From a virus: DNA of 64,000 nt. The stretch is from positions 52,981 through 116,980 of IMG/VR virus record IMGVR_UViG_3300018875_000003, one strand, 5' to 3'. Numbering within the stretch: position 1 is the stretch's first letter; every line of letters begins with the position of its first letter. Positions 305-58,870 of this stretch are shown here, in pieces. Below the pieces are notes generated by a model. That model did not search any database, was not told the DNA's origin, and worked only from the letters and a program-made list of their open reading frames with translations. Position numbers and translations under genes: made by a program.

Positions 305-1054
305 TTATTCCGGCGTGTAATCCGGCGTTTGGTAAGTAGCATACATTTCCCTCCTTCTCCTGTTAGATGCGTGCCTGCGGGCTTCTGAGAGGTCGCAGGT
401 GTACTCCATGTGGAACCGCTCTTCACTCATGCCGTAATTATCATCGCTGTATTCCTTTTTCGTTGGATGAGGAATAATGAAAGGCTGGACACATCCGTCT
501 CCGAATGCTGGCTTGAGCTTATTGTCCATGAATTTCTTAAACGCGTTATCCATCACGGTTGAATAGCTCGAAACCATGATGACTTGTGCATAGGTCATCA
601 GCTGCTCCAGCCATCCAGAATCAATAACAAAGCTGTCTGCGTCATCGAAGAGGACGAGATCGTTTTGGTATCCGTCTGGCCGGTGCGCCTGCGGATCTGT
701 TGCGAATATAACGGTGCGCTGTCTGTGCCGCGGCCCGATCGTAATCAGTGTTGCACGGCTTCGGTAATATTCCACACCACGTTCGCGCAGCATGCGCTCA
801 AACGCATTCTGGTGATAATGCAGCTGCTGGTTGAATCGGCAGAAGAACGTCACGTCCTTGCTGGATGCCAGCGCCTTCTCATACAGCGTATAGCTCTTCC
901 CTGCTCCCCTGTGTGCGACAGCGGCGATATGCTCTGCTGTGGACTCATGGAACTGCTGCCACGCCTGGTCTCGATCAGATGCGTCCACGACGATAGTTTG
1001 GACGGTTTCCTTTACTGGAACGATTCGATCCAAATATTCCTTTAACAGCTCCAT
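305..1054 (-). CDS. P-loop ATPase resembling the terminase large-subunit ATPase domain (no nuclease domain)
   Basis: AHRGAGKS Walker A, LVLFDDAD Walker B, ERFHMEYTC like the terminase F.qEY.c motif; RBS AAGGGAG. Confidence 0.55.
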   Translation of the reverse strand: MELLKEYLDRIVPVKETVQTIVVDASDRDQAWQQFHESTAEHIAAVAHRGAGKSYTLYEKALASSKDVTFFCRFNQQLHYHQNAFERMLRERGVEYYRSRATLITIGPRHRQRTVIFATDPQAHRPDGYQNDLVLFDDADSFVIDSGWLEQLMTYAQVIMVSSYSTVMDNAFKKFMDNKLKPAFGDGCVQPFIIPHPTKKEYSDDNYGMSEERFHMEYTCDLSEARRHASNRRRREMYATYQTPDYTPE

Positions 1055-1292
1055 GCGGCGTGACTCCCTTCGGCAGAATTTCCTCGAAGCGGGTGAAGGT
1101 CTCGCCTTCGTACTCTACTTCGTTGTGCCACTCCACCAGTGGTCGATGGTATTTCTGGTCTGGCTGATCCTCGTTGTAGTACCAGATCGACTTGCCGTCG
1201 TCGTGCCGGCTGGCATCGATTCCGATGTCTGCGATCACGTAGATGCCGCCTTTATAATGCTGCCAGCGGCTTCCGATTTTTGGGGTACGCAT
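975..1292 (-). CDS. DUF1653-like protein
   Basis: RWQHYKGGIY...YHRPL...RFE pattern; RBS AGGAGG. Confidence 0.6.
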   Translation of the reverse strand: MRTPKIGSRWQHYKGGIYVIADIGIDASRHDDGKSIWYYNEDQPDQKYHRPLVEWHNEVEYEGETFTRFEEILPKGVTPHGAVKGIFGSNRSSKGNRPNYRRGRI

Positions 1293-1332
1293 AACCCATT
1301 GCCTCCTATTTGAGCCGAAGGCTCAAAGTTTT

Positions 1333-1509
1333 TTATGCTCCTAACTCCAGCGAGATATTGATGCGATCGATCGGTTGGTGCTTGATAACGTGCAGCTCGA
1401 TGGCTTCTTCCCCGATATACATGACGATACGGTCGTTTTCTGACACGATCGATTCAATGTCGTCCATATGCGCGTCCAGCGCGTTGCGGATTCTGTCTGT
1501 GATATTCAT
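1333..1509 (-). CDS. small hypothetical protein (58 aa)
   Basis: ATG with AAGGAG RBS; fills the gap in the leftward operon. Confidence 0.6.
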   Translation of the reverse strand: MNITDRIRNALDAHMDDIESIVSENDRIVMYIGEEAIELHVIKHQPIDRINISLELGA

Positions 1510-1514
1510 TTTGT

Positions 1515-1898
1515 TTAATTCTCCTTAATGACATGCCATTCTTGCGAATGCAGGTCTCCGTCTGTGAGTCGGTATGGTCTCCACTCTTCATCGTCATGCG
1601 TTCTACCTACGACAGCGCCGAGCTCCATTTTGAGATAGACATCTGAACCATCTCTTCTGGTGACAACGTGTCCAGACTTCATCATCACGATTGCGATGCT
1701 CACGTCAAACTTATGGACATACTCGAAGTCCATGTATTCTGCTGGGACGAAGATGATGGGCTTTCCTGCCCCGTATCTGTCCCTCCATGCTTTCCCGATC
1801 TCTACGAGCAGTTCCACCTTGACGTCTTGTTCGACTTTGCAGATATGCACGCCGCCGATGTTTTGAACCTTATCCAGATACTGCTGTAACAGCTCCAT
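1515..1898 (-). CDS. protein with C-terminal DUF2829/Tad2-like domain
   Basis: AIVMMKSGHVVTR...PYRLTDGDLHSQEWHVI resembles the A..alk.G..V.R...w.p...D.la.DW..v pattern. Confidence 0.5.
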   Translation of the reverse strand: MELLQQYLDKVQNIGGVHICKVEQDVKVELLVEIGKAWRDRYGAGKPIIFVPAEYMDFEYVHKFDVSIAIVMMKSGHVVTRRDGSDVYLKMELGAVVGRTHDDEEWRPYRLTDGDLHSQEWHVIKEN

Positions 1899-1905
1899 TT
1901 TCTCT

Positions 1906-2211
1906 TTACCTCTCTATTCTGTATAACTGCTCGTATAATTCTAACGGACGCAGTAGAACGGACTGGAATCTCTGCATGATTCTCCCCTTGTATACTTCCA
2001 TACATTTTCCCGTGTGAAGCTCAAGGTCGTTGAAGCAGTAGACCAGCTTTTCTCCTGTAGTAGCTTTACTGCATCTGATCTCAAATCTGCCATTTTCACT
2101 CAACGCAACTTCGCCTGGCTGAATGTAGTGGATCGTATCCGCGAGGTGCATCGATCGCTTTTGCCTGTCGTATTCCCTATTTTTTTCTGAATAGGCCTTC
2201 ATCAATTCCAT
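1906..2211 (-). CDS. hypothetical protein
   Basis: Operon packing; starts MELMKAY. Confidence 0.65.
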   Translation of the reverse strand: MELMKAYSEKNREYDRQKRSMHLADTIHYIQPGEVALSENGRFEIRCSKATTGEKLVYCFNDLELHTGKCMEVYKGRIMQRFQSVLLRPLELYEQLYRIER

Positions 2212-2576
2212 TAGGCACCTGCCCTCTTGATGGTGCGCGGCTTACGCTTGGCACGGCAGCTGCTACATTGTTCGTAAGGCCCATCGTTCGGTGTGCCGCA
2301 GGCTACGCATTTCCCTGCTTCCAGGCGGCGTCTACGCTTGTCTGCCTGGTAGTGCTTCATACAGAAGCCTTTCGACTTATGCGGCAGCCCGCAGCCTTCT
2401 ACGGTGCATACGATGTATTCGTGTATCGGTCTTCCTGTGGAAGCCAGTGCAATGCTCGCATCGTTATGCCGCATGTATCGTCTGTAATGCTTCCAGCAGT
2501 ATCCTCTGGCCACGACTCTCGAATCGCAGTCGTCCATCTTGCAGATCGGGTTGATTGCCGGCTTTTCCTTTTTCAT
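2211..2576 (-). CDS. Cys/His-rich zinc-binding phage protein
   Basis: Two C..xxC...arG.C.kHY repeats plus a CxxC..CxxC ribbon. Confidence 0.65.
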   Translation of the reverse strand: MKKEKPAINPICKMDDCDSRVVARGYCWKHYRRYMRHNDASIALASTGRPIHEYIVCTVEGCGLPHKSKGFCMKHYQADKRRRRLEAGKCVACGTPNDGPYEQCSSCRAKRKPRTIKRAGA

Positions 2577-2740
2577 TTTTTTATTACATGAATCTTCTGA
2601 ACCTGGGCGTAGTCTCCTTCAGTGTCGATGATCGTCGCTTCGATCAGAGCTGCCGATGGATACGCTTGGCCTGCCGGTACGCTGTCGATTTTCTTCCCGC
2701 CTGTTTTATATACGTCAATGATGAATGCTTCTGCCAACAT
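2573..2740 (-). CDS. small hypothetical protein (55 aa)
   Basis: MLAEAFIIDV...; ATGA overlap with the next gene; first gene after the promoter. Confidence 0.5.
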   Translation of the reverse strand: MLAEAFIIDVYKTGGKKIDSVPAGQAYPSAALIEATIIDTEGDYAQVQKIHVIKK

Positions 2741-2783
2741 GATTGATCAATCCTTTATTTTTTATTTACTTCCGTATTCTCAG

Positions 2784-2812
2784 ATTGTAACGCGTTACAA
2801 AGTAGTTGACAA
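2784..2812 (-). promoter_or_regulatory. sigA promoter of the leftward operon with overlapping operator
   Basis: TTGTCA-17 nt-TACAAT on the minus strand; perfect palindrome at 2786-2799. Confidence 0.7.
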
Positions 2813-2981
2813 CAAGTAATTTTCCTATAGGGGGCATTTTCTACAAAAAAATTTTTCGGAGGGTACCTAGTTGTTTATTGTTGGTGAGTGGTAGCGTTCG
2901 GCGCCCCACCCCCTTCAATAGACAACACACATTTGGGTTGGCAGTGATCCCATCAAACTGCACAAACGAAAGGAGTCTATC

Positions 2982-3524
2982 ATGACTACACAAGCATTCA
3001 GCAAGAAAGGTCTTAACATTCTTCAAGGAGCAAGCATCCAAGGCGCACGCTTACTGGGTCAAACAGTACGTGGCATGGATAAGGTAGCTGCTGTGGTTGC
3101 CCCTGTATTGGGTACGGCATGGAGCGTTATTAAGAAGGTAGGCATCGCTGTATACGATATGGTACGTGATGACATCGTTCAGTTGGCAGGCTTTGTACGT
3201 GAGCACAAATGGCAGACAGGTGTAACAGTAGCCTCTGCTGTGGTAGGTGGCATGGCTACCTCCACTATGGTAGGGGCTTCTATACTGGCTGCTATCCTGG
3301 CTATGACTACCATTGTCACTGTACACTACCTGATTGCGAAGCGTAAGAAGCAAGCTATGGACTGGCGTACAACCATTGCAGCAGCGCTTCTTTCTGGAGC
3401 ATGGGCGTTTACTATTCCATTCGCTGTATTCACCCTGCTTGCAACGCTTATCTTTGGTGCATTCTTCGTATTCAAAGGTATGCTGCTTGTATTCGTACAA
3501 GTAGCTGCCCTGTTCGTGATCTAA
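2982..3524 (+). CDS. membrane protein
   Basis: RBS AAGGAG; several hydrophobic segments in the C-terminal half. Confidence 0.75.
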   Translation: MTTQAFSKKGLNILQGASIQGARLLGQTVRGMDKVAAVVAPVLGTAWSVIKKVGIAVYDMVRDDIVQLAGFVREHKWQTGVTVASAVVGGMATSTMVGASILAAILAMTTIVTVHYLIAKRKKQAMDWRTTIAAALLSGAWAFTIPFAVFTLLATLIFGAFFVFKGMLLVFVQVAALFVI

Positions 3525-3532
3525 TAGGTCAT

Positions 3533-3853: not shown

Positions 3854-3882
3854 CAGCAAATACACTACTGGAGGTTTTCTGT

Positions 3883-4056
3883 ATGACAAAGCAACTCTTA
3901 TTAAGCAAAGGTGAACACCTGGGCTTCTGCCCAATGAAAGGCGATCTGTATTCGGTAGAATCGGGCCTTTCTATTTTCGGTAAGCCGCAATACCGCATTT
4001 ATTCCCTGAAAGGAGATTCCATCAGTGAACTCATCTCATTCCAAGTCATCCGCTAA
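3883..4056 (+). CDS. small hypothetical protein (57 aa)
   Basis: GGAGG RBS, ATG at 3883, open to TAA at 4056. Confidence 0.6.
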   Translation: MTKQLLLSKGEHLGFCPMKGDLYSVESGLSIFGKPQYRIYSLKGDSISELISFQVIR

Positions 4057-4126
4057 TCTGTCGTCCCGTCTGTCGTCCGCCGCTCTGTCCAACCAAACTA
4101 AAACTAACCAAAAGGGGTTTTCCACA

Positions 4127-7100
4127 ATGACAACTACTAACAACAACAAACAAGCTCAAATCAACAAGCAACTGGCTCAAGTTAATCGTCTGTTCAACCA
4201 AGCTGTAAAAGGCAACAAAGTGAAAGCTGAAATGTCCGAACTCAAGTCTGCTTCTGTAATCCTCGATGCGATCGCTACATTCCCAGGACTGGGCGTGAAA
4301 ACGAAGAACTATGAAGCGATCACAGCAGCTATGGCAGAAGGACACAGCCTGCGCAGCATCATGCTTAATCCGGAGCTGACCGGCGTAGCGAAGAACCAAT
4401 ACCGTTACTTCCGTGCATTCATGGATGCTAAAGGTGACGACATCCCTGAGATGGTTATGGCTCCGACTCGTAAACGTGTACGTACTGTATCGGTCGATCT
4501 GCTGAAGCACTCCCGCAACGAAGCTGGTGAAGTGGTGCTCAACGCGGAGGTTAACTTCCAATCTCAGTCTCAGCTGGCTGATGCGTTTGGCTCCCTTGCT
4601 GCCGACGACAAGAGCGATCTGTACTTGGATATGGCTCACGTTGTTTACATCGACCTCAACATCGCTGATCAAGAGAATCAGGAATTGAAAGACTTGCAGG
4701 TCGAGGTTGTACGCAACGGATTCTACTACAGTGTGGATGGCGTTACACACAAAGCCAACTTCTTCATTCAGACAGCATCCCAGGCTCGTCAGCTGCAAGG
4801 TATCTACATTGCCGAAGACTTCATGACGATCCCGCAAGCATTCAAGAAGCTGGGTCATGACTTCCTCGCTTACTGCAAACTGAGCAAAGATGGCATCTAT
4901 ACACTTGACATCACGAAGTATCTGAAACGTCCAGGTCTGTCTGGTACAAGCTCGGTATCTTCGAAAGCAATCACATTCCCGAATGCTCGTATCAGCAAGC
5001 TGGCTAATATGACTACTGGTGAATACCTGGTTGAATCCGATCGTCACACGATGGCGGTTATCGAGGATCGCTTTGCAAAGATCACCAATGGCACATTCAA
5101 AGCATTCTACAACAACCGTGTGGTAACTGTGTCTGCTGTTGATGGTGTATTCACCGCTCAATGGAAAGATGGCCGTCTGACTAAACAAGAAGTGCTGCCT
5201 ATGAACTACCTGAAGCTGGGTGTAGGCGATGGCTTGGTTCTGGCATCCGAGTCGATCTACTGGGCACTCAAAGCCGAGCATGGCAATGACTCTGACGCAT
5301 GGCAAGTACGTATCACCCCATTCGTTAAAGGTCTGATGGTATTCGTCCCTGGCCTGCGCAAGTATTATGATGCAGACATCGTTGCATTCAAATCCGCTGT
5401 GAAAGGTGACTTCCGCCTGATCGCTGACGAAGAAGGACGCTTGGACTTTAACATCGAGCTGCGTATTGCTCGCTTTGCTAAACGTCCAGGTAAGAAAGCG
5501 GAGTATGTAGAGCTGCCGTATCAGTTCGCTCACGTATCCAGCATCACTGCAGAGCAAATGATCAATGTAGCTGCTCCACGTCTGGAGGAAGCAAGAAACG
5601 TACTGTCCAACCCTGCACTGATCCAGAAGTATACTGGCGTGGCTCACCTCGAAGACCTGAGCAAGCTGACGACTGCGGAAGCTGAGTTTATGCGTGATCG
5701 TTCCCTTGTATCCGTATTTGCTAACTTCATGCACTATGCCCCATTCACGTATGAGGATGCTTACATGCAAACACGCGCTCTGCAACTGATGGGACAGCAA
5801 GTAGACAAATGGGTTGCTGGTACAATCCCTGTAGAAGGCGAGTATCGCTTCATGGTTCAGGATCCGTATGCTCTGCTGCAAGCTGTGGCTGACGAAGATG
5901 GTGATATGATTGTTCCCGCTTCCGTTGGTCTGCGTCCGCATCAAACATTCATGACTGCACGCGATAACAAACACTTTGTGACTGGACCGGTTGCTTCCTT
6001 CCGTAACCCAGCGATCGCTAAAGGTGAAGGCCGCGTACTGAAAGGTGCTGCTCCGGAGAACTATGTAACCGCATCTGCGAAAGGCGCATTCAACTCGGTC
6101 TGCATCATGAGCTGCCACGATCTGGACACGTTCGCTGAAGGCGGCGCGGATAACGATGGTGACGAAACATTCGTAACGCAAGTGCCTGAGATCGTAAACA
6201 GCATCATGGGCAAAGATGGCGAATCCAAGTTCCTGGCTATGCTTGACCTGCATGTAGGCAAAGATGGTGAGTGGGCTTCCGGTTGCCCGTTCCCTATGGA
6301 ATCCGATGAGAAGCTGACATTCGGTGCAGCATGCGTGGATCACGATGGACAATTCAAAGTGAAGTTCACTGCTGATCAATACGATGATGCTTTCATCCAA
6401 GCTGTGCATGAGCTGAGTAAAGAGTATGTCATCCGCACGCTGAACCCGAACAAGATCGGACAGCAAACAAACATCGCTACACGTCTGGCGGATGCTGTGC
6501 GTAAGGTTGGCTATATGTATGCTGAGGGTGTAGACGAGTTCGGTCAAGCTGTCGATCGTACCGAAGCAGAGAAACAAGATCTGCTGCATGAGATTGTACG
6601 CATGGAAGAAATGATCGATCTGGTTCGTCTGACACAAGGATGGGAGATTGACCGTGCGAAGCATGGCGGTGCATACGAAGAAGCACTGGCTGCCGAGCTT
6701 AACTTCATCAACAACCCACCGAAGTATGCTGGCTTCCAGGAGAATCCGAAAGCGAAACGCGTATGGATCAAGCAAGCATGGTTGTCTCACCACAAAGGCA
6801 CTGAAGGTGGAATCGATACAGGTTCTGTAATGAGCCGCGTACACAACCACATGAAAGCATTCGTACAGGAGAATGTAATCGACAAGTCTGAGGAAATCAA
6901 GAACGATGTCGAGAACAACAACATCATCCATGTACTGAGAAGCGAATATGCTATCGATGCTAACAAGTATGAGGCTTTGGCTGCTGTGATCCGCTCGATC
7001 CGTGCATCCTACACTGCCGACCTGATGAATGCCCGCAATAAGAATGCAGAGTTCAACAAGCTGGCTGAAATCAAATACAACGGCAACGACCACGCTATTC

Positions 7101-7687
7101 GTATGGCGAAAGCTAAGATCGAACGTATCTATAGCGAAGATTGCGATGCGATCACATTCAAGCACCAGGCTGCACTCGCTGCACTGGAATTGTCTTACTC
7201 TGCTACAGATATCGGCTATGTATCCTATATGGTGACATATACGGAGCGTGGTAAAGATGGCAACCGCTCGATCAGCTTCCCTTGGGTTGTGGCTAAGAAA
7301 CAATTCCTGGAGCTGTGCGCGAAGATTGCTAATCGCGAGATCGTGAAGAATCCTTATCTGGTTCCCGCTTCTGAAATCAAAGCAAACTTCCGTATTGCAG
7401 AAGATCCACGCAGCACAGAAGGCAAACACTATGATGGTATGAAGATGGCTGAGGTTATCAAGCAAGCTGGTTCAATCGAGGTTATGTATACGCTGAACGA
7501 GGTAACTGGTGTGTATGGTTACGTGGCATTCGTGCCTGTAGGCAGCAGACTGGTATATGTCGGAGATTTCTATCAGGATCAGGTTGCATTCATGACCGGA
7601 GCTACCCACTTCGAACTGAATGTATCCAATGCAGAAGCAAAAGGACAAGCCATGACCCTGACAGTCTCCAGCGTAGGTCGTAAATAA
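4127..7687 (+). CDS. single-subunit two-barrel RNA polymerase (YonO / eukaryotic RdRP-like family)
   Basis: Ordered motifs GDGLVLAS, WQVRITPFVKG, FRNPAIAKGE and catalytic GGADNDGD (6140-6163); RBS AAAGGGG before ATG 4127. Confidence 0.85.
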   Translation: MTTTNNNKQAQINKQLAQVNRLFNQAVKGNKVKAEMSELKSASVILDAIATFPGLGVKTKNYEAITAAMAEGHSLRSIMLNPELTGVAKNQYRYFRAFMDAKGDDIPEMVMAPTRKRVRTVSVDLLKHSRNEAGEVVLNAEVNFQSQSQLADAFGSLAADDKSDLYLDMAHVVYIDLNIADQENQELKDLQVEVVRNGFYYSVDGVTHKANFFIQTASQARQLQGIYIAEDFMTIPQAFKKLGHDFLAYCKLSKDGIYTLDITKYLKRPGLSGTSSVSSKAITFPNARISKLANMTTGEYLVESDRHTMAVIEDRFAKITNGTFKAFYNNRVVTVSAVDGVFTAQWKDGRLTKQEVLPMNYLKLGVGDGLVLASESIYWALKAEHGNDSDAWQVRITPFVKGLMVFVPGLRKYYDADIVAFKSAVKGDFRLIADEEGRLDFNIELRIARFAKRPGKKAEYVELPYQFAHVSSITAEQMINVAAPRLEEARNVLSNPALIQKYTGVAHLEDLSKLTTAEAEFMRDRSLVSVFANFMHYAPFTYEDAYMQTRALQLMGQQVDKWVAGTIPVEGEYRFMVQDPYALLQAVADEDGDMIVPASVGLRPHQTFMTARDNKHFVTGPVASFRNPAIAKGEGRVLKGAAPENYVTASAKGAFNSVCIMSCHDLDTFAEGGADNDGDETFVTQVPEIVNSIMGKDGESKFLAMLDLHVGKDGEWASGCPFPMESDEKLTFGAACVDHDGQFKVKFTADQYDDAFIQAVHELSKEYVIRTLNPNKIGQQTNIATRLADAVRKVGYMYAEGVDEFGQAVDRTEAEKQDLLHEIVRMEEMIDLVRLTQGWEIDRAKHGGAYEEALAAELNFINNPPKYAGFQENPKAKRVWIKQAWLSHHKGTEGGIDTGSVMSRVHNHMKAFVQENVIDKSEEIKNDVENNNIIHVLRSEYAIDANKYEALAAVIRSIRASYTADLMNARNKNAEFNKLAEIKYNGNDHAIRMAKAKIERIYSEDCDAITFKHQAALAALELSYSATDIGYVSYMVTYTERGKDGNRSISFPWVVAKKQFLELCAKIANREIVKNPYLVPASEIKANFRIAEDPRSTEGKHYDGMKMAEVIKQAGSIEVMYTLNEVTGVYGYVAFVPVGSRLVYVGDFYQDQVAFMTGATHFELNVSNAEAKGQAMTLTVSSVGRK

Positions 7688-11077: not shown

Positions 11078-11347
11078 ATGGAGCTGATGACTTACTATAT
11101 CGATAATGCTTATGTGACGCTGCCTGATATGATCCCTGGTGTCCGATATCAGTTCTTGTATCACCACGACGATCCAGATGCTCGCTATATTGCCGAATAT
11201 ATCGGTCGTGATGATGATAAATGGTATCATCGAATGTTGTTCCGTATTATATGGCGAGATGCTGATATACATCGTGAGCAGATGTCTCTGTTCACGAATA
11301 AAATCACTCATATCAAGCTACATGGTGGTGATGCCGCATGGAACTGA
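11078..11347 (+). CDS. hypothetical protein
   Basis: RBS GAGGTG; starts MELMTYY. Confidence 0.65.
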   Translation: MELMTYYIDNAYVTLPDMIPGVRYQFLYHHDDPDARYIAEYIGRDDDKWYHRMLFRIIWRDADIHREQMSLFTNKITHIKLHGGDAAWN

Positions 11348-11586
11348 TCAGTCGCTATTGTTTAACCAGAGGTATCGGCGGCGTAACTATCAAAGATCGA
11401 AGCTTTGGTTACGGAGATTATTTGCGCATCAGGCATGCGGATCTGACAGGCAGCTATGAAACGACAGGTACTCTTGCTCCCTCTATCGATGATCAATATA
11501 TCATTCTTATAGATGATGATGACGATGATATTCATATATGGCGTGGTGATATTAATTATGTTGAGGATCTGTGCAGCCTTTGCTGA
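11338..11586 (+). CDS. hypothetical protein
   Basis: RBS GGTGGTGA; starts MELISRY. Confidence 0.65.
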   Translation: MELISRYCLTRGIGGVTIKDRSFGYGDYLRIRHADLTGSYETTGTLAPSIDDQYIILIDDDDDDIHIWRGDINYVEDLCSLC

Positions 11587-18272: not shown

Positions 18273-18301
18273 TTGTAATGCGTTACATTCTACATTAGAA
18301 T
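18273..18301 (+). promoter_or_regulatory. sigA promoter with operator
   Basis: TTGTAA-17 nt-TAGAAT; TGTAATGCGTTACA at 18274-18287. Confidence 0.6.
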
Positions 18302-26816: not shown

Positions 26817-27176
26817 ATGGAATTAATGAGTGGTTATCATTATCGTCCACCTGGCGAGTTCCAGGCACAAATCAACCGAACAAAAGCAAAAAACGGCGGC
26901 TTTCCAGGATGCTGGACAACGCAAGAAGGACTGGTTCTTCTTCCACAGAATATGCGTGATGGACATCTTTTAAACTCCATTGCCATGACAGAGCGACGCT
27001 ATATCGATAAGATGGGTATTCCTAATATCCGATCGATTGCCACGAAAGTTATCAATGGCACGTATAACAACAGTTATCAAGATCACCACATCCGAGAAGT
27101 CGTTCGCTCACTACGAAAAAGCCGAACCTATATTAATATGCTGAAAGAAGCCAGGGATCGGGGGATATTGGAATGA
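26817..27176 (+). CDS. hypothetical protein
   Basis: RBS GAGGTGA; starts MELMSGY. Confidence 0.65.
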   Translation: MELMSGYHYRPPGEFQAQINRTKAKNGGFPGCWTTQEGLVLLPQNMRDGHLLNSIAMTERRYIDKMGIPNIRSIATKVINGTYNNSYQDHHIREVVRSLRKSRTYINMLKEARDRGILE

Positions 27177-39050: not shown

Positions 39051-39875
39051 ATGAAAATGAACGACGAGCTGCATCCAGATCGCGATCAAATGCGTTTTAT
39101 TGGCGTGACCAAAGATGCGACAACAGCAGGGCCAGGAAAGCGCCTGGAACTGTTTTTGAAAGGTTGTATTCGTGGCATAGTAAATCCATGCGAAGGCTGC
39201 TTCAATCCCTCTACGTGGGAATTTGGAGGTCTACGCCGGGATATGCACATCCAAGAGACAGCCGATATGATTATCCGAGATGCGTGGAATCTTCAAGTTA
39301 CATTTTGCGGCGGTGAGCCGTTGCTTCAAACGCGCAATCTTATTCGATTATGTAAAGAGTTGAAACGCCATAACAAGCGATTCCATATCGTGGTTTATAC
39401 AGCCTATACGCTTGAGAATCTGCTGAATAACGGGATTACTTATCGCATTCGTAAAGGCGATGACGAAGCCGTAAGGGAGACGCTGCTCGCCTATAGCGAA
39501 AGCTGGGACGAGAACAAAGAGCGCTTTACTATTGCCACTCCGGCACAAATCCGACAGCTGCTGGAAGTCATCGATATTCTGGTCGATGGCGACTATCAGT
39601 CGAAATACCGGATTCCGACCGAGAAATATATGAATGACGGTATGTTTATTGGTTCGAGCAACCAACGTGTATTCGATACGCAAAAGACACTTTCTAAAGA
39701 ACCGGCATTTGTTTACCTGCATGCTGACGAGTGGATGGATGAACATTCACGCCTGAAGCATTGTAAGTGCTGCGGTCATGCTTTGCAGATTCAAACGAAC
39801 ACCTATTGCGACGACCTCTGTAAAAAACTGTATCGCAAGCGAGATAAAGAGATGGCTCTGTTAGGTGGTGTCTGA
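39051..39875 (+). CDS. radical SAM protein, NrdG-like activase
   Basis: GPGKR, C...CEGCFNP, GGEPLLQ, DILVDG, GSSNQR. Confidence 0.8.
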   Translation: MKMNDELHPDRDQMRFIGVTKDATTAGPGKRLELFLKGCIRGIVNPCEGCFNPSTWEFGGLRRDMHIQETADMIIRDAWNLQVTFCGGEPLLQTRNLIRLCKELKRHNKRFHIVVYTAYTLENLLNNGITYRIRKGDDEAVRETLLAYSESWDENKERFTIATPAQIRQLLEVIDILVDGDYQSKYRIPTEKYMNDGMFIGSSNQRVFDTQKTLSKEPAFVYLHADEWMDEHSRLKHCKCCGHALQIQTNTYCDDLCKKLYRKRDKEMALLGGV

Positions 39876-41136: not shown

Positions 41137-42780
41137 ATGTCAACTGCTATTCAACAATCATCTGTGGACGAACTTTCTGTGCTGCTTAATTCGCGGCACA
41201 GAGCCATTCTGGTTAAAACTTACGAGGAATCCCGCTTTATCGAAAACTTGAAACACATCGCCCAGGAGAAGGGCTACCAAAACGTATACTTCTGGTCTGT
41301 CACTTCGGGGCTGGTGGATGCCATCACCGGCAAAACAAGAGAGAAAGCGGACAATCCGATTCAGCTTTTCGATGCAATCGCCAAAGACGACAAGCAGAAC
41401 ATGTATGTCATCCGCGACTTCCACGATGTCTGGCCAAATGCGCAGGCGAAGCGTAAAATGCGTGACTGGCTGGAAACGCCAAGCAATGTATACAAACCTA
41501 TCATCCTGACTGCACCGGAAGCATCCATTCCACTGGAGCTGGAAAAACTGATCTCCGTGATCAACTTTGACCTGCCGGATCGTGACCGTGTAACATCACT
41601 GCTCGAAGCCAGCTTGAAGATGCTTCAGAAACAAGAACTGCCTGTTCCCAAAGGGCGCGAATATGATGCGATCGTGCATGCACTGGTGGGAATGACGCAA
41701 AACGAAATCACCAACATCCTGCGCAAATCGATTTCCAAACACAAAGCTATCGTGTTGTCGGAGATCGTGGCTGAGAAAGAACAAGTTATCCGTAAAACCG
41801 GTCTGCTGGAGTATATCACCAAGCTCGGCAACATGGATAATGTCGGCGCAATGGATCGATTTAAAGAATGGGCGGACGATGCGTATTATGCGTTTCATCC
41901 CGAAGCCCGTAACTATAATGTCGATCCGGTTCGTGGCGTGGTTATGGCGGGTGTACCGGGTACCGGTAAATCTCTGACAGCGAAATCCATCGCTCATCAG
42001 TGGAACCTTCCGCTTCTGAAGATGAATATGTCCGACATCATGGACTCCAAAGTCGGCCAATCCGAGAAGAATATCTCTCGTGCATTGAAGCTTGCTGAAC
42101 AGGTGTCTCCGTGTGTTCTCTGGATGGACGAGTTCGAGAAGGGTCTTTCTGGTATGTCCAGCTCTGATAAGTCGGACTCTGGTACCCTCTCCCGCGTGGT
42201 TCAGGAAATCCTGACGTGGCTGTCTGAGAAAGAGAAGCCCGTATTCGTTATTGCCACAGCGAACGATATCACCAAGCTGCCGCCCGAACTGACTCGCGCC
42301 GGTCGTTTCGATGAAATCATGTTCGTCAGTTTGCCGCACACGCAGGAACGCGCGGAGATCCTGGGCATTCACCTAAAGAAGCGCGGATACAAAATCATTG
42401 AAGGCGAGTCGGAGGAACTGGATACATTTAATCAGATCGACCTTCAAGACCTGGCTTCCAAGATGGAAGAGTTCACCGGTGCTGAAATTGAGCAAGCAGT
42501 GTCCGAAGCCGGCCGACGTGCTTATGCTGCTTTCCGCAAGGCACAGCGCAAGTCTCACTATATTGCGCTGGCAGACCTTGAGGAGCAGGCTGAGAAGATC
42601 GTTCCGATCGCTAAGCGAAATCCATCGCTGGTCAATGACCTGCGCGAGTGGGCCAAGCATTCTGCGGTCTGCGTATCCAGTGCAGAGCACAATTATCTGC
42701 ACAATGGACAGGCGTCTACGCCGGAATCGTCTAAAGCAAGCCCGCTTCGCATCCTTGGTGATGAGATCGAATTTAGCTGA
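41137..42780 (+). CDS. Ycf46-like AAA+ ATPase
   Basis: [40 protein letters not shown]. Confidence 0.88.
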
Positions 42781-51112: not shown

Positions 51113-51460
51113 GTGAATGGAATGAAAGTCCCAGTAAAGATTACCAGCAAAGTAACCGGCAGGGTTATAGAATCTTTAGTCTCGGCCCGCGAGCTGCTGG
51201 ATACGTATGAAGAAGTTATCGTACAGGATCTGACGAATTGCGAATGCCAGCCCGTTGGTGAAACCAATGTTGTCGATTGCAGTTGTGGCGACGAATGGGA
51301 TGATTATGAGCTGTTGATCGGAGATGAGGCCAACGTAGGCAGCGATTTGTTATCTGCTTCCGCTTTGTCTGTTCTACAGTCTGGACTGGTTACAACTTTG
51401 AATCATGGCCGCGAAAGGTACCGTGTCACACGAGCGCTTATTGACGTCGAAAAAATATAA
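51113..51460 (+). CDS. hypothetical protein
   Basis: CEC...CSC; start may be slightly downstream. Confidence 0.55.
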   Translation: MNGMKVPVKITSKVTGRVIESLVSARELLDTYEEVIVQDLTNCECQPVGETNVVDCSCGDEWDDYELLIGDEANVGSDLLSASALSVLQSGLVTTLNHGRERYRVTRALIDVEKI

Positions 51461-51473
51461 AGGAGGAAGCCTT

Positions 51474-51869
51474 ATGGGAGATCCATGGATGAAATCTGCT
51501 GATGAAAACTGGAAGCCTGGCGATATTCTGATTGCCAACACAAGTGACTTTGATTTGACCGAGGGAAAGGAATACCCTGTAGTTAATACAAACTTCTCAG
51601 GCATGGGGCTTGTTGGTATTATGGATGACAGAGGCATTATAGAGGACTACACCTCTGAATACTTCGATCGCAAAACCGAAGCCAAAGGGCGCATCGAAAT
51701 GACCGATGATGAGCTGCGCATTTATGATCAGAATGACCAAGAAATTGTCATTTGGACTCAGGATCAGTGGATAGATGACCCTTCCTTAGTTCTATCGATG
51801 GTCAATGCTGTTCACATCCTGCACACCCAGGGGCCAGAGTTTTTGAAAACAATTCTAAACGAAGTATAG
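51474..51869 (+). CDS. hypothetical protein
   Basis: RBS AAGGAGG. Confidence 0.6.
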   Translation: MGDPWMKSADENWKPGDILIANTSDFDLTEGKEYPVVNTNFSGMGLVGIMDDRGIIEDYTSEYFDRKTEAKGRIEMTDDELRIYDQNDQEIVIWTQDQWIDDPSLVLSMVNAVHILHTQGPEFLKTILNEV

Positions 51870-51879
51870 GAGGATTCAC

Positions 51880-52290
51880 ATGCAAGCAAAATTGACTTTT
51901 AGAAGCGAGCAGCCGCTTAGCGTTAAACCCGAGGTGTTTACCTGCGGCGGTTATTCTGTAGTAGACAAAAACGGCAATACAATCCCTTTTGATTGGGATC
52001 AGTTGACTGGCAATTCAGACATTGACGGAGAAGGATACTGGGTTGTTGAAGTTGACCATCAATTTTTTGCATCCGCTCATGATGATGAGTATCTTGAAAT
52101 TGGCCTTGATCCAAAAGATGTTACAGCTGAGCTTTTAACCAAGCTGCAACTTACCGAGGTTAACTACCAATGTTATCTGGATCCTGAAGAGACAACATTC
52201 GTCCCCGTAATCCTCACTTCGTTTGAAATCGATGGATGCGCATTCAGTCCCGAGCAGATTGCGGAGTATTACGAACATCTTGAGCAATAA
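51880..52290 (+). CDS. hypothetical protein
   Basis: RBS GGGAGG. Confidence 0.65.
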   Translation: MQAKLTFRSEQPLSVKPEVFTCGGYSVVDKNGNTIPFDWDQLTGNSDIDGEGYWVVEVDHQFFASAHDDEYLEIGLDPKDVTAELLTKLQLTEVNYQCYLDPEETTFVPVILTSFEIDGCAFSPEQIAEYYEHLEQ

Positions 52291-52316
52291 ATAAATAATA
52301 GGAAGGAAGAAGTATC

Positions 52317-52997
52317 ATGGCAGCAGGCAACTATAACAACAATGGCGGAGGTAAGCGCGGCAGCTTTGACCCATCCAAATACGAAACGGTAAAACGGAGA
52401 AAGGAGCGTCTTCGCAACGACTACCCCGATTCGGTTATTTATCCGATGCAGGTCTCCGGCGTATCCTACGCAAACCACTTTGTCGTGTTTATGACACTTA
52501 TCTGGAAAGATAAGAAGGATCGTGTGTCGAGTCCGGAAGTGATTGCTGCGGTTGCAGAGATGGCCAGAACAGTAACGGCTGACAATGCGGCAGTCGTTGC
52601 TGCTTCGATCGGTCTTCTGATGAATGCTGACTCTATCGGTTATTCACTGTCGATCGCAGGCGGTCGCCAGGCGGATCAATACGCTTGGGTCGAGAACTGC
52701 GAAGAGTCCGCCACCGGTCGCGCCCTGGATAACCTGGGTTATCATAGTGGCAGTGCAAGCCAGGAGGAAATGCAGAAAGTCATCGACACTGAAACGATTA
52801 CGAAACAGCGTATCCAGGTGGAAGGACAGATCAACACCTATCTGCAGCAGCTTGGCCAGATGGGAATCAACCTCCAGACCGTTCATGCGCAATGCGTAAA
52901 TAACGTTGGTAAGCAGTTCACGTATTTGACTGAACTCAATATTGACGAGCTTCAATCCGTGTTAACCGTTGTCCAAGCCGCAATGCCTGCCGCCTAA
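52317..52997 (+). CDS. putative Rad52-like single-strand annealing protein
   Basis: ENCEESATGRALDNLG motif. Confidence 0.5.
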   Translation: MAAGNYNNNGGGKRGSFDPSKYETVKRRKERLRNDYPDSVIYPMQVSGVSYANHFVVFMTLIWKDKKDRVSSPEVIAAVAEMARTVTADNAAVVAASIGLLMNADSIGYSLSIAGGRQADQYAWVENCEESATGRALDNLGYHSGSASQEEMQKVIDTETITKQRIQVEGQINTYLQQLGQMGINLQTVHAQCVNNVGKQFTYLTELNIDELQSVLTVVQAAMPAA

Positions 52998-53611: not shown

Positions 53612-53714
53612 ATAGCAGCATAATGTAAGACGTTACAATTTTCTGCCTGTAACGTCTTTTATTATGCCTAAAACATGATATAATAGCTTATGCTACAGAA
53701 TGGAGGCCCATATT

Positions 53715-54167
53715 GTGGAGCTTATTAGTGCTTATATGTATAATCAAATCCCTTTTCAAACCATCGGTATTGCGCCTATAACGATCAACAATCTGATCTC
53801 TATGGGTTGGGTTGAAGACGAACGAAAGTCGGCAGCATATGCCATTATACACCGCCGCCTGAAAATTCAGGAGCAGTATTATAAGATGACCCTGCGCTTC
53901 AAGCGGATGCCGGACAACACCCTCGAACTGGATACTCCAGCGCCATTTATGATCGTACTCAGCGATCTGAAGGAGATTGAGCCACGTCCGCGTTTTGTTG
54001 ACACCGCCGTTTATCACAGCAAGAACGTCAAAACGGTGTCTGGCTATTTTGAGCAAGGCATCCCAACCGAATTGATCGAATCGCTGCACCTTGAACTGAA
54101 ATCGTGCCTGTCATATAAAAAAGAAGAGCCGTGGGTTATCGGCGTTGACTGGGGGAATAAGAAATGA
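53715..54167 (+). CDS. hypothetical protein
   Basis: GGAGG RBS 8 nt before GTG 53715, giving MELISAY. Confidence 0.6.
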   Translation: MELISAYMYNQIPFQTIGIAPITINNLISMGWVEDERKSAAYAIIHRRLKIQEQYYKMTLRFKRMPDNTLELDTPAPFMIVLSDLKEIEPRPRFVDTAVYHSKNVKTVSGYFEQGIPTELIESLHLELKSCLSYKKEEPWVIGVDWGNKK

Positions 54168-55426
54168 GTTTTGCACCAACACAAATGAACGCGGCACTTT
54201 CAAAGCGAACCGCACGGATCCTACGCACCTATCTTGATTTTCCATATAACAAACCTATTACTGCTCTCGATTTTAAAGCATTCGATGGACAACCGCTCAA
54301 CGAGCTGACTTTATGCGCCAGTGAGCGGTTTTTGTATGGCGCCGAGCCCGCACAGTTTATGGCCAAGCAGGCTAGTGAGTTTTTCGAACGTGTTGCAATT
54401 GCGACCTATAAGAGCGAATCCAAGATCAGTAACGATGTGTTCTCTCTGGCTCTCGTCAATCCGGTAGTTAGCCCTTACTTTATCAATGACATCTTTTCTT
54501 CTTACGATCCATTTCAGATTCCTGACTTTGAGGAAGAAGAGCGCCAGCGTCAGAAAAGCCTGGAGTCTACAAAGGATCATCTCGATCTCAACCAACTGGA
54601 GATGACTGCTGAAGAAATCGAACAGCGCAAAGCCGACATGGAAGAGCGTATTCAGAAAGCCATCGAAGAACGTAACATTGCGTATCGCCGCGCGCTGCGT
54701 GAGCAAGAGAAACGCACAGCTGCGTATCGTGATGATAAGCTGATGCTAGTGAATGCTACCCGCTATTTGAAGCCGGGCGGCATCCTGGTCATGATTACGC
54801 CGAAGGAGTTTATCGACGGACAGATCGCATTCAAACTGGCTAACAGTTATGAGGATATTCAAATCCTGCGACTGGAAGACGAAGAATATGAAGATCAGCG
54901 CAAGTGTGTGATTCTGGCCAAGAGACGGGCGAGGAACGTTCGTCAAGATACACTGCCTTATGAAATCATGCAGACGAAATACAAGTCGTATAAAGATATT
55001 CCAGTCATCTCATTTCAAGAGACACCAGCATACAAAGTGCCGGAGTCGCACAAGGATCAGGTCGTCAACTTCCGTATTGGACCGGTTACGCCTGATGAGG
55101 TCATGCACATGTTTAAGAAATCGGCTGTCGTTGAAAATTTTGCGATTCAGCACGGCATCACACTCGACAATCAAATACCAAAGCCGCCGACGCAGCTGCA
55201 TAAGGGTCACGTTTCCCTGACGCTGGCGAGCGGGCTGCTGAATGGATATATCGGAACAGGTCACGATCGACACCTGGTAAAAGGTTCTGTCGTGAAGAAG
55301 TCTACGGAAGTCACAGAGGAAGAAGACACAGAAGCTGGCACCGAAGTTAAAACAGTGGAGCGTGAGTATTTCCACATTGGAATTAAATATCTCGATCGTA
55401 ACGGGAATTTTCATAAATTGCTATAA
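54164..55426 (+). CDS. DUF6094-like methyltransferase-fold protein (degenerate motifs)
   Basis: LKPGGILVMITP, GHVSLTLASGLLNG, HLVKG; paired with the downstream helicase. Confidence 0.6.
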   Translation: MSFAPTQMNAALSKRTARILRTYLDFPYNKPITALDFKAFDGQPLNELTLCASERFLYGAEPAQFMAKQASEFFERVAIATYKSESKISNDVFSLALVNPVVSPYFINDIFSSYDPFQIPDFEEEERQRQKSLESTKDHLDLNQLEMTAEEIEQRKADMEERIQKAIEERNIAYRRALREQEKRTAAYRDDKLMLVNATRYLKPGGILVMITPKEFIDGQIAFKLANSYEDIQILRLEDEEYEDQRKCVILAKRRARNVRQDTLPYEIMQTKYKSYKDIPVISFQETPAYKVPESHKDQVVNFRIGPVTPDEVMHMFKKSAVVENFAIQHGITLDNQIPKPPTQLHKGHVSLTLASGLLNGYIGTGHDRHLVKGSVVKKSTEVTEEEDTEAGTEVKTVEREYFHIGIKYLDRNGNFHKLL

Positions 55427-55438
55427 GGAGGAAATAGC

Positions 55439-58400
55439 GTGGCTATACGAGTATCTGATGAGCTTTTTAGGCTCCATTTTCATGCGCGCGGTCCTGGGGC
55501 GCTGACTCAGACCTATGTTGACTTGCTTGTTATGGAAGAAATCCGGGCGAACTCATTCAATCTATATCTGGCGAATACAATGAATATCGATTCGAAGCAA
55601 AAGATATTTGCTTATGACATGGCTGAAGTCAAAACCGGTGTGATTCAACCTGCAGGTGATGAACAAGTCCAAAGATCGGAGTCCGTTAACATCTTCATTG
55701 AGGAGAAGGATTCCTTTGATAAATACGAGCAGCGCATTGATGATATGACGAACATCTTGTTTGTCTCGAAGAGAGCCAAGAATGATGTAAAAAAGAAAGA
55801 GATGCGCCGCATCGAAAACATTGCTCGCATCGAAAATGGCATGCGTTCGCTGCCGCCAGAACCTGAATTAATCTTGGCCTGGAATGGTGACACGCATTCG
55901 GAAATCTACCGCGTTCTGAACGACCGGTATAATACACCGATGCTGCCGGAATGGAAAGACGATATCGTTCAGACATGTATCGATCTCGGCTATTACAGAC
56001 CGCTTGTGGTAAAAAGCTACGGCCGTGATTATGATCTGGAGGCTGGACTGCTGCGCATCACAGAAGAAGATCTCGAAGAGATTATTTCCGAAGGCATTCG
56101 CTCCTATTCGATGCCGTTTGCGATTCTCGATGACGGCCCAACGGAAGAAGAATCCGTGCTAAAAGACTGCACAACACTGGATGTGTATCTGGAGAACTTC
56201 GCCGGCGAACTTGGCCAGCGTGTACAGGAGAACTCACAGCTCCGCTTTGATCCTATGACGCAGGAGCATCACCGTTCACTCTGGCATGCGAATATGCACG
56301 CCAATACCAAAGGCGTAACCGGCCTGTTCCCGCCGCAAGCAGACGTTGTAATGGGCTGTGCGAATACGTTGGCCGAGGACAAATATGTCTTCCTGATCGG
56401 GGAGATGGGTAGCGGGAAGACACCAATGGGTCTGACGATTCCATATGTGACCCATGCCGTTCGTTCCGGTACCGATAAACCGAAGCCGTTCCGGACGCTG
56501 GTTTTTGTTCCGGCGATCATGGTAGACAAATGGCAGCGTGAGATCGAAGAACGCGTTCCTGATGCAAAGGTATACCGCATCAACACCTGGAAGGATGTTC
56601 ATGCTCTTCGTAACAAACCGTATCGTCCGACCGAGATCGAGTATTACGTAATGAGTTCCGATGCTGCGAAGCAGACGTATCCGCTTGAGCCAGTTATGGA
56701 TTTCCGTCATGGCTGCGACGACAACAATGACTATGATGAGGTCATCGCCAAGAAGCGCGCCGGAAATCAAGTCCGCATTCGCCCAACAGTATCGACAACT
56801 TTCTTCAACGGCAATCCGGTCGATACGGTAATCCCTGGTCCGGAAGCGATGTATTGCCCGCAGTGCGGATCGCCAATCAAGAAGACCAAGACGAAGTATT
56901 CCGACGAGCATTACTTCCAGCTGCGCCGCGGCAAGGACAAGTGGTCGTGGAATATGAACCGTGAGAATTATCGCTGCCGCAGCATGGTCAGTGTGGAGAA
57001 TCTGCCGAAGAACCAGCGTCAGCCAGGAGCTACCGAGAAACAAGAATGCGGATACGTGTTCTGGAGCGCCAAGAAGCTGCCTCAGCGTTCGCTGGAGCGT
57101 AAGGTGTCTCCGGCATGGTATCTGAATAAACACCTTCGTCGTGGGTTCTTCGAGTACCTGATTGCCGATGAAGTACATGAGTACAAGTCCGGTGACTCCG
57201 ATCGTGCGAATGCGTTCGGACAACTGATCAATCACACGAATAAACAAATCCTGCTGACCGGTACGCTGCTGGGCGGTATGGCGCGCGATATCTTCTATCT
57301 GATCGCACGTCTGGACTCCAAGAAGCTCAAGATCGAAGGCATCAGCTATGACGATGAAAGCCTATTTGTGGAGCGCTACGGCGTTTATGAGCGTTCTCAA
57401 ACCGAGTTCTCCGATGACCGTAAAGGCAAGAAGCGGAAGAAGCAGCTTCCAGGCGTTTCACCGCAGGTATTCCCGCGTTTCCTGATGAGCAACTGCGCAT
57501 TCATCGAGCTGGGTGATCTGGGCTACGCGCTGCCGCCGTATCGAGAGATTCCGATGTTCGTCGATATGGAAGAGGAGCATCGTCAGAAATATGATGAGCT
57601 GGAAGGCAACATCCAGCGAGCCATGGGGCAAGGCGGAATGAAACATCTGTCTACCTACATCACCAAGCTGTATCAGTATGCCGACATGCCATTCCGTCAG
57701 GATCCGGTAACGTATCTGGATGAGCGGGATGTCGAAAAAGTGTTGTGCCAGCCGTACAGTTTCCCGGAAGAGTATACGCCGAACAAGTACTACAACTTGC
57801 AGGGGCTGCTTGAGGAGCAGGTGGAGCAGCGTGGCCGCAAGGTTCTGATCTATGCGCGATTCACTGGCGGCGACAACGGGGTGGATACCTGGTTGTATGA
57901 GCGCCTTAAACAAGACGGCTATAACGTAGGCATCCTGCGTTCGTCCGGCACGTATGACGGCATGAAGATGCCGAAGCAAGAGGACCGTGAATCTTGGCTG
58001 CGCAAGAAGATGGAGCAGCATGATTGGGATGTCCTCGTGACAAACTCCCGTCTCGTAGCTGTCGGTCTCGACTTGTTGATGTTCCCGCACATTCACTTCT
58101 ACCAAATGGATTACAGTGCCTACAACTACATGCAGGCTTCCCGCCGATCCTGGCGGATTAAGCAAACGCAGGAAGTTGAGGTTAGTACGTCCGTGTATCG
58201 CAATACAATCCAAGCAGACGTTCTGGAAAGCATTGCGAAGAAGATTGATGCAGCAATGGCGCTCCAAGGTAAATTCTCTGAAGAAGGTCTGCGAGCAATG
58301 GCCGATACTGGCGATGGCATCAACGCAATAGCCAAGAAGCTGATGAATGAAGGTCGTCTGGACAATATCAACTCTATCGAAGATCGCTGGAAGCGGATCA

Positions 58401-58681
58401 ACGCATCCTACGAGCAGCTGCAGAACAGTCAGTACGAAGGATACGACTCTTACGAGATGAACCCACTGGGTATCGAGAAAGTCCGCGAGATTCAGAAGGG
58501 GCTCGTCTCCAAGATGCGAATCGATGTGGCTGCCGGCAGAATCACGCAAGAGACGCTGGAAGACTACATGGATCATATCGAGAGTGTCTTCCGCGTGGTC
58601 GAAGATGTGCGTGAATATAACAAAGGCCTGCGCAAAGCTGACCGGATCGTTGAGGGTCAGGGCGAGCTGGCGTTGTTCTAA
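55439..58681 (+). CDS. large SF2/SNF2-related helicase
   Basis: GEMGSGKT, IADEVHE, LTGT, GLDL, QASRRSWRI. Confidence 0.88.
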   Translation: MAIRVSDELFRLHFHARGPGALTQTYVDLLVMEEIRANSFNLYLANTMNIDSKQKIFAYDMAEVKTGVIQPAGDEQVQRSESVNIFIEEKDSFDKYEQRIDDMTNILFVSKRAKNDVKKKEMRRIENIARIENGMRSLPPEPELILAWNGDTHSEIYRVLNDRYNTPMLPEWKDDIVQTCIDLGYYRPLVVKSYGRDYDLEAGLLRITEEDLEEIISEGIRSYSMPFAILDDGPTEEESVLKDCTTLDVYLENFAGELGQRVQENSQLRFDPMTQEHHRSLWHANMHANTKGVTGLFPPQADVVMGCANTLAEDKYVFLIGEMGSGKTPMGLTIPYVTHAVRSGTDKPKPFRTLVFVPAIMVDKWQREIEERVPDAKVYRINTWKDVHALRNKPYRPTEIEYYVMSSDAAKQTYPLEPVMDFRHGCDDNNDYDEVIAKKRAGNQVRIRPTVSTTFFNGNPVDTVIPGPEAMYCPQCGSPIKKTKTKYSDEHYFQLRRGKDKWSWNMNRENYRCRSMVSVENLPKNQRQPGATEKQECGYVFWSAKKLPQRSLERKVSPAWYLNKHLRRGFFEYLIADEVHEYKSGDSDRANAFGQLINHTNKQILLTGTLLGGMARDIFYLIARLDSKKLKIEGISYDDESLFVERYGVYERSQTEFSDDRKGKKRKKQLPGVSPQVFPRFLMSNCAFIELGDLGYALPPYREIPMFVDMEEEHRQKYDELEGNIQRAMGQGGMKHLSTYITKLYQYADMPFRQDPVTYLDERDVEKVLCQPYSFPEEYTPNKYYNLQGLLEEQVEQRGRKVLIYARFTGGDNGVDTWLYERLKQDGYNVGILRSSGTYDGMKMPKQEDRESWLRKKMEQHDWDVLVTNSRLVAVGLDLLMFPHIHFYQMDYSAYNYMQASRRSWRIKQTQEVEVSTSVYRNTIQADVLESIAKKIDAAMALQGKFSEEGLRAMADTGDGINAIAKKLMNEGRLDNINSIEDRWKRINASYEQLQNSQYEGYDSYEMNPLGIEKVREIQKGLVSKMRIDVAAGRITQETLEDYMDHIESVFRVVEDVREYNKGLRKADRIVEGQGELALF

Positions 58682-58684
58682 GCT

Positions 58685-58870
58685 ATGGAATTAATGCACC
58701 ACTATCAAATCAACCGGGCGTCACTTATTGGCCGAGGACATAATGGGGCGGATAATCTTTATTCGCTCCTCTACCCTCAATGCGGCCATCGCCATTATAT
58801 GACCGATTTTCTTCCAAACGAACTCTGTTTCTTTTGTCATCATTATCAAAAACAAAATCAGAAAGGCTGA
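58685..58870 (+). CDS. small zinc-ribbon-like protein
   Basis: CGH...CFFC; starts MELMHHY. Confidence 0.5.
   Translation: MELMHHYQINRASLIGRGHNGADNLYSLLYPQCGHRHYMTDFLPNELCFFCHHYQKQNQKG

Follow-up and report, generated by a model that had tools for sequence, protein, structure and literature searches.

Why do eight proteins with unrelated bodies, encoded on both strands of one viral genome, begin with nearly the same seven residues? The question is raised by a stretch of 64,000 nucleotides (the window), bases 52,981-116,980 of the IMG/VR virus record IMGVR_UViG_3300018875_000003. The record is 116,980 b long and is estimated to be 59% complete; the window is its non-structural half. A sequence-only reading had listed eight N-termini of the form M-E-L-[LMI]-x-x-Y and proposed that they are selected as peptides. 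All eight are where it placed them. A six-frame scan of the whole record, using every ATG, GTG and TTG, finds exactly eight such starts, each at the head of an open reading frame (ORF) of 61 aa or more; they are confined to the window half, and the structural half has none. The same start is found in related elements, so that an observation on eight proteins in one window extends to a clade-wide system. A peptide-level tag on unrelated proteins is well supported; what it does is a matter of hypothesis, and it most likely acts as an address label.

The shared start and the proteins behind it

Chance is rejected as the origin of the shared start because of the six-frame scan, the simulations and composition, and a control for the choice of motif. 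In 100 second-order Markov simulations such starts number 0.19 on average and two at most, versus the eight observed; the amino-acid composition predicts 0.005 tagged starts among about 140 genes. Since the motif was chosen after the fact, position-specific triples of N-terminal residues were counted as a post-hoc control. The commonest is E2-L3-Y7, with 8, 17 and 9 genes in the window's own record (G000) and the related records G001 and G003. In two tagless control phages no triple of any kind is found more than four times, and the triple analysis finds no other shared tag in them. The motif is not enriched inside proteins: EL[LMI]xxY is found six times in a set of 133 genes, with 1.3 expected, and five of the six are N-terminal.

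The bodies are indeed unrelated by BLASTP, as had been claimed. No match is found among the eight, and the comparison holds for 54 tagged proteins from five tag-bearing records (G000 and its four relatives G001, G002, G003 and G009:C7). With the first 12 residues removed, these fall into 37 groups by BLASTP. All but seven of the groups are single proteins; the seven comprise six sets of orthologues from different genomes and a trio of tandem paralogues in G009:C7. Apart from that trio, no two tagged proteins of one genome match at E < 1e-3, and paralogy is rejected at the level of BLASTP. Four tagged families, named here by the window position of their starts (53715, 26817, 1898 and 1054), are common to most records. 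The rest are lineage-specific ORFans, often at matching sites: after the DNA polymerase, before an S8 protease, or in the small-gene region after a 1200-aa protein. A Pfam scan of 53 of the 54 proteins (one crossing a locus boundary was left out) finds two domains only, PRA-PH (a MazG-like pyrophosphohydrolase) and Tad2-like. The tag carriers are small, mostly fast-evolving accessory proteins which bear the tag only at the very N-terminus.

Selection keeps the peptide and not the DNA or RNA. The start codons of the 54 tags are ATG (42), GTG (6) and TTG (6); Glu2 is GAA in 35 and GAG in 19, and Leu3 uses all six codons, in line with the synonymous variation first noticed in the window. Information content is high at codon positions 1-2 and near zero at third positions, and a Shine-Dalgarno signal is all that the upstream regions have in common. 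The E2, L3 and Y7 codons of 30 orthologue pairs give 90 comparisons, of which 47 show a difference; all of these differences are synonymous and none is nonsynonymous, which bears out the proposed selection on the peptide. Pooled orthologue identity is 0.70 over residues 1-7 vs 0.29 past residue 12. One detail of the sequence-only reading does not generalise: Tyr7 is TAT in all eight window tags (vs 52% TAT genome-wide), but TAC is used in 15 of the 54 (TAT in 39), so that the uniformity is a quirk of this genome and not a feature of the tag. A DNA or RNA signal as the main cause is rejected on the uninformative third positions, the use of all synonymous codons and the three start codons.

The conserved part is slightly longer than seven residues. 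The extended consensus is M-E-L-[M/I/L/V/A]-x-x-Y-[L/I]-x-[R/N/K]; of 36 tags, 19 have L or I at position 8 and 29 have R, N or K at position 10. In the AlphaFold model of the 53715 protein, residues 2-10 form a helix (first ten residues, pLDDT 57) and residues 11-18 a coil, followed by a body with pLDDT 86-95. In the AF2 model of the Tad2-like (1898) family, a helix at residues 2-9 (pLDDT 82) precedes a small N-domain. Over the first 11 residues the helical hydrophobic moment averages 1.17 in tagged proteins vs 0.87 for 678 untagged N-termini. The models suggest a short amphipathic helix (residues 2-10) in front of the body, with M1, L3, residue 4, Y7 and residue 8 on its hydrophobic face. 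The architecture is that of an add-on: helix then coil in the 53715 family, and in G001_188034 a PRA-PH (MazG-like) domain which starts at residue 21.

A k-mer search of intergenic DNA for a shared promoter returned a 16-nt motif, AATGTAACGCATTACA, which is not tied to tagged genes; a promoter common to them is therefore rejected. The motif is near-palindromic and mostly intergenic, with window copies at 18287(-), 19238(+), 22129(+), 31120(+), 39019(+), 46125(-) and 50910(+), and 16 copies in G001. It sometimes lies about 30 nt before a start codon, for example that of the radical-SAM/RNR-activase-like gene at 39051, and is probably an operator or promoter element.

A clade of Bacillales phage-plasmids

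The record is a jumbo myovirus-like element. Its minus-strand first half, outside the window, encodes terminase, portal, major head protein, tail sheath and three proteins of about 2000 aa; the window encodes small ORFans together with helicases, a primase, a UvsX-like recombinase, RNase H and an AAA ATPase. Megablast of the DNA against phages finds no close relative. By comparison of one virion protein the closest cultured kin are distant: Moorella phage MTATph1 (33% identity) and Bacillus phage 0305phi8-36 (27%). A helicase query leads to three close records: G001 (206 kb, complete, helicase 86% identical), G002 (93 kb, 47% complete) and G003 (206 kb, complete). A profile search with the 53715 family adds G009:C7, a 198-kb contig of Alicyclobacillus shizuokensis. 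Searches for related loci with the 150-aa (53715) and 249-aa (1054) tagged proteins gave no match, and the 53715 family is in none of the cultured phage records searched.

Homologues of two tagged proteins lie on 186-216 kb contigs in assemblies of Paenibacillus, several Bacillus species and Alicyclobacillus, and homologues of the same two are also found on eight 200-260-kb records with a plasmid annotation. Among the element's genes is one for an actin-like segregation protein. Because of these three features the family is best described as jumbo phage-plasmids of Bacillales, of about 200-260 kb; the actin-like gene and the plasmid annotation of the relatives point to plasmid-like maintenance. 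The actin-like protein (ALP_N + MreB-like_C, Alp7A-like) is encoded at 51259-52506 of the record, just left of the window, and at 69766-70959 of G001. It is followed by a conserved gene of about 55 aa, and both genes lie next to the trio of tagged genes on the window's left edge.

The tag follows this clade. ORFs of at least 50 aa starting MEL[LMIVAT]xxY number 8 in G000, 17 in G001, 4 in G002, 10 in G003 and 15 in G009:C7; MTATph1 and Bacillus phage KLEB27-3 have none. With a looser DNA pattern, five named plasmids of 200-260 kb have 24, 15, 8, 9 and 20 matches, where reversed-pattern controls give 3, 4, 3, 5 and 2. The same pattern has 0, 0 and 1 matches in three cultured kin, and 2, 0, 1, 2 and 1 in five more distant uncultured kin (108-224 kb). 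Element and host can be compared directly: of 48 matches in a 3.6-Mb Alicyclobacillus genome, 17 are in the 198-kb contig, and the other ~3.4 Mb has 31, equal to the reversed-pattern control (31). The tag is thus strongly enriched in the element, with the host chromosome at control level. Residue 4 drifts by genome, being mostly M in G001, I in G003, I or V in G009:C7 and A, V or I in Bacillus-type elements. The tag is a hallmark of one clade of ~200-260-kb Bacillales jumbo phage-plasmids, distant kin of 0305phi8-36 and MTATph1.

Conservation within families agrees. The tag is present in all 14 homologues of the 53715 protein (25 of 43 representatives are strict and about nine more are near-variants), and it is kept in 11 of 13 homologues of the Tad2-like 1898 protein. 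Gene starts annotated by NCBI coincide with the tag in six of six cases in one stretch of a P. urinalis plasmid, for eight genes of an 11-tag cluster in a P. rhizovicinus plasmid, and for the 53715 family in two plasmids.

Three side observations concern these genomes. The 11-gene tagged cluster of the P. rhizovicinus plasmid includes a GNAT-family N-acetyltransferase gene (locus L098, 109156-109554); a link between this enzyme and the tagged N-termini would be pure speculation. A 1220-aa protein encoded at 4025-7687 (+) of the window, which matches no PHROG or Pfam family, is conserved throughout the five tag-bearing records, and two tagless kin lack it. At the start of G003 (1-~4000) is a CRISPR-type array, in which a 32-nt repeat recurs about 60 times at a spacing of 65-68 nt.

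What the tag may do

The eight starts are probably copies of a portable N-terminal address tag which docks unrelated proteins onto a common reader, and we hold this with moderate confidence. The tag helix would dock all tagged proteins onto one reader, made by the element or by the host, and docking would give a changing set of accessory proteins a shared fate. That fate could be delivery in the capsid, recognition by a protease, or capture by an ATPase; some other reader may be involved, which we put forward tentatively, and the rest of the probability falls to a role without docking.

Several points weigh against a docking tag. All tag starts are predictions. "Unrelated" means unrelated by BLASTP, and genes at matching positions may be homologues that have diverged beyond detection. 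Residues past the tag are also conserved in the 53715 family, so that part of the conservation is internal to the family. The modelled helix of the Tad2-like family may belong to the fold of its N-domain. A co-occurrence screen for the reader singled out no protein, as the S8 protease, the AAA+ ATPase and the actin-like protein (in this last case as weak homologues) all occur in tagless relatives too; 44 of 100 core genes are clade-specific, too many to single out a reader. A scan of the G000 record and the gene maps of its relatives show no structural-module gene with a tag. There is no conserved protease site past the tag either: Glu stands at position 9 in 8 of 36 tags, and 29 of them have R, N or K at position 10.

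Loading into the procapsid is rather doubtful as the fate, and the last two points bear on it directly. Here the helix would bind the procapsid scaffold or core, so that anti-defence and DNA-handling proteins are packed and injected with the DNA, as with the capsid-targeting sequence (CTS) of T4; a prohead protease may then remove the tag. The prohead protease of T4 cuts at L/I-x-Glu. The logic is the same as in the T4 internal proteins IPI-III and Alt, where, in the part of the source covered here (PMC3012670), a peptide of about ten residues at the extreme N-terminus is the sole shared part of diverse, fast-changing small proteins, some of which counter host defence. The cargo fits, with Tad2-like and MazG-like proteins, and the packaging and head module is immediately preceded, on its own strand, by three tagged genes, of which one is terminase-ATPase-like. 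Tagged genes also flank a methyltransferase-like and SNF2-helicase pair, and the other large helicase matches a "DarB-like antirestriction" PHROG. DarB of phage P1 is packaged into capsids. In the relative 0305phi8-36 the head module includes a protease gene in which a scaffold gene is nested, according to the sections covered of PMC2147016. In the present clade, a 496-aa core gene that follows the portal gene is likely to encode a protease or scaffold. However, most tagged genes are in early-type and replication clusters, and unlike the CTS the tag has no Glu-type cleavage site behind it and no head-module protein that bears it. The element is a 0305phi8-36-like Firmicutes phage-plasmid and not a T4 relative, and packaging would rest on the analogy with T4 and on the kind of cargo; no cultured phage carries the system. 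Microcompartment encapsulation peptides and encapsulin cargo-loading peptides likewise mark unrelated enzymes for one shell, with a short amphipathic terminal helix and a tether. The modelled tag resembles these in being a terminal amphipathic helix with a linker (helix 2-10 and coil 11-18, or helix 2-9); unlike in those systems, the only shell in sight is the phage capsid, although shell genes were not looked for.

Two enzymes of the element are candidate readers. One is an intracellular-subtilisin-like protease, a 297-aa Peptidase_S8 (E 1e-58) with no pro-domain and an N-extension of about 25 residues reading ...TDYKV.... Its gene is directly downstream of a tagged-gene cluster in all three complete records and in the P. 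urinalis plasmid. It is unlikely that the tag is a substrate or pro-peptide of this enzyme, with residue 4 (M/I/L/V) in S4 and Tyr7 in S1 (as P4 and P1); cutting after Tyr7, or occupancy of the enzyme, would activate, time or destabilise the tagged proteins. Conserved positions 4 and 7 with free positions 5 and 6 do make a P4/P1 pattern. The covered part of PMC6220982 describes intracellular subtilisins (ISPs) of Bacillus clausii and Planococcus which hold an N-terminal LIPY/F motif across the S8 active site and prefer hydrophobic residues in S1 and S4. Tag and ISP pro-peptide share a hydrophobic-x-x-Tyr/Phe within the first ten residues, and the element resembles the ISP setting in encoding its S8 protease next to the tagged clusters. 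The ISP motif, unlike the tag, is on the protease itself and has a nearly invariant Pro; the tag is on other proteins, has Pro at position 6 in 4 of 36 cases and has an invariant M-E-L. A protease site need not start at residue 1, which leaves M1-E2-L3 unexplained, and the tag is modelled as a helix and not a strand. The same protease, with an unchanged gene order, is also found in tagless MTATph1 (51% identity), KLEB27-3 and G006.

The other candidate is a classical AAA+ ATPase (PF00004 + AAA_lid_3) of 547 aa, encoded at 41137..42780 (+), with an N-domain of about 260 residues. Terminal tags are the usual handle of unfoldases, and the tag might be a degron or docking signal for this ATPase, or for a host protease, which would set the lifetime of early accessory proteins or remodel them; this, too, is improbable. 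With 58-79% identity across the five tag-bearing records, the ATPase is one of their best-conserved genes, and three tagless cultured kin lack it. Tagless G006 and G007 do have homologues, as do mycobacteriophages (29% identity), and nothing ties the tag to the AAA+ N-domain. The AAA+ orthologues end in a conserved acidic-hydrophobic tail (...D/E-I/L-E/D-F-S/N...), which might be a docking tail. Taken together, it is possible, if doubtful, that an element-encoded reader (S8 or AAA+) reads the free N-terminal tag and processes, activates or times the destruction of a quickly changing set of anti-defence and takeover proteins, unrelated to capsid loading. A new gene would then join a common post-translational control by acquiring seven codons.

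It is very unlikely that there is no reader at all, the shared start being a translational operator or enhancer in DNA or RNA, a remnant of ancestry, or a generic N-terminal capping helix which aids folding or translation. The uniform TAT of the window favours such a signal, and so does TTA, a Leu codon which makes up 5% genome-wide and 4 of the 10 Leu codons in the window's tags; this excess may only mirror A+T-rich gene starts. The third codon positions, the free use of synonymous and start codons and the upstream regions conserved only in a Shine-Dalgarno run all speak against it. The helix that may be part of the N-domain fold in the Tad2-like family is a further point for a start without a reader; against it stand also bodies that are unrelated and of different known folds, and kin with the same gene order and no tag.

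If the address tag is what it appears to be, it marks the accessory "arsenal" of a whole group of large Bacillales phage-plasmids with seven residues that can be searched for by sequence. Most of its carriers are ORFans, and at least one (Tad2-like) is a relative of anti-Thoeris sponges. The T4 trick of one short tag on many interchangeable cargo proteins would then have arisen independently in an unrelated lineage of Gram-positive hosts, and the tag could be used to load or control foreign proteins within these elements. The question can be put to a direct test, since strains of Bacillus (such as B. licheniformis and B. halotolerans) and Paenibacillus that grow in culture carry the ~200-kb elements as plasmids. 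The motif, its lineage and its host range are new: in the parts covered of the literature on 0305phi8-36, capsid targeting sequences, Bacillus jumbo phage-plasmids and conserved N-terminal phage motifs, there is no description of the tag.

The eight genes and their neighbours

The three tagged genes at the left end of the window are on the minus strand. The ORF at 305..1054 (MELLKEYLDR, 249 aa) encodes a P-loop protein similar to the ATPase domain at the N-terminus of large terminases; a Walker A motif (GAGKS) and a Walker B motif (LFDDAD) can be read from its sequence. It has no Pfam or PHROG terminase match, and its Pfam P-loop hits are sub-threshold only. Its nearest ESM Atlas clusters are all Terminase_6N (score 0.96, 184 shared features), which is a lead only. 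Tagged orthologues occur in G001, G002 and G009:C7. A search of 5.8 bn proteins gave the 249-aa protein a single match, whose called start aligns to residue 8; either the tag is absent there or the start is miscalled.

The ORF at 1515..1898 (MELLQQYLDK, 127 aa) has an N-domain of about 55 aa, which includes the tag, and then a Tad2-like domain. The suggestion that one tagged protein is Tad2-like is borne out through its orthologues and its fold. Against the Pfam Tad2-like model (PF11195, cut-off 25 bits) the window protein scores 13.8 bits (E 0.085), below the cut-off; the G001 orthologue scores 18.2 bits (E 0.0036) and the G002 orthologue 31 bits (E 3.7e-7), which is above it. Several homologues are named Tad2 family by NCBI. 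The AF2 model (pLDDT 75.9) has Tad2 structures as all of about its top 20 Foldseek PDB matches (prob 1.00, best E 3e-3, TM by target <=0.74).

The third ORF, at 1906..2211 (MELMKAYSEK, 101 aa), has a tagged orthologue at 67172+ of G001. Its ATG overlaps, as TAATG, the stop of an HNH/zinc-finger-like ORF at 2211-2576 (-). This 121-aa ORF matches HNH-endonuclease PHROGs and a WRKY19-type zinc finger, and may be a split or decayed homing endonuclease.

The other five are on the plus strand. Two are adjacent in the early-type small-gene region: a small ORFan at 11078..11347 (MELMTYYIDN, 89 aa), whose tagged orthologue at 57979- of G001 (45% identity) lies within a run of six tagged genes, and an ORF at 11338..11586 (MELISRYCLT, 82 aa), which overlaps it by 10 nt and for which no relative was found. 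Two starts which had been offered as variants do not hold up as members. MEITHEY (10553) is rejected since its protein belongs to DUF6877 and the G001 orthologue starts MSQEITHEY, so that the likeness is an offset look-alike; MNLIVAY (15757) is a possible but not a convincing member and has no relative in the four related records. Downstream of a 624-aa helicase is the conserved core family at 26817..27176 (MELMSGYHYR, 119 aa), with tagged orthologues in G001, G002 (MELVGEY) and G003. An Atlas search with this protein returned no named family, and its structural neighbours are weak, aligning to residues ~22-119 only.

The ORF at 53715..54167 (MELISAYMYN, 150 aa) has a GTG start, with an in-frame ATG five codons upstream; its fold has no PDB match at E <= 1e-3. 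It opens a conserved set of three genes, in which it is followed by a DUF6094 methyltransferase-like gene (54164-55426) and then by an SNF2-type helicase (55439-58681). The last tagged ORF, at 58685..58870 (MELMHHYQIN, 61 aa), starts 4 nt past the helicase stop and is the weakest gene of the eight. A Shine-Dalgarno-like run precedes seven of the eight tagged starts, and it is this one that has none; the P. rhizovicinus plasmid does have a tagged start (MELVQTY) at the corresponding site, where it overlaps the stop of the helicase gene. The block at 53715-58870 is kept in all relatives examined, with a helicase of 1080 aa; the second tagged mini-gene is found here and in one plasmid. The block recalls split DarB-type anti-restriction proteins.

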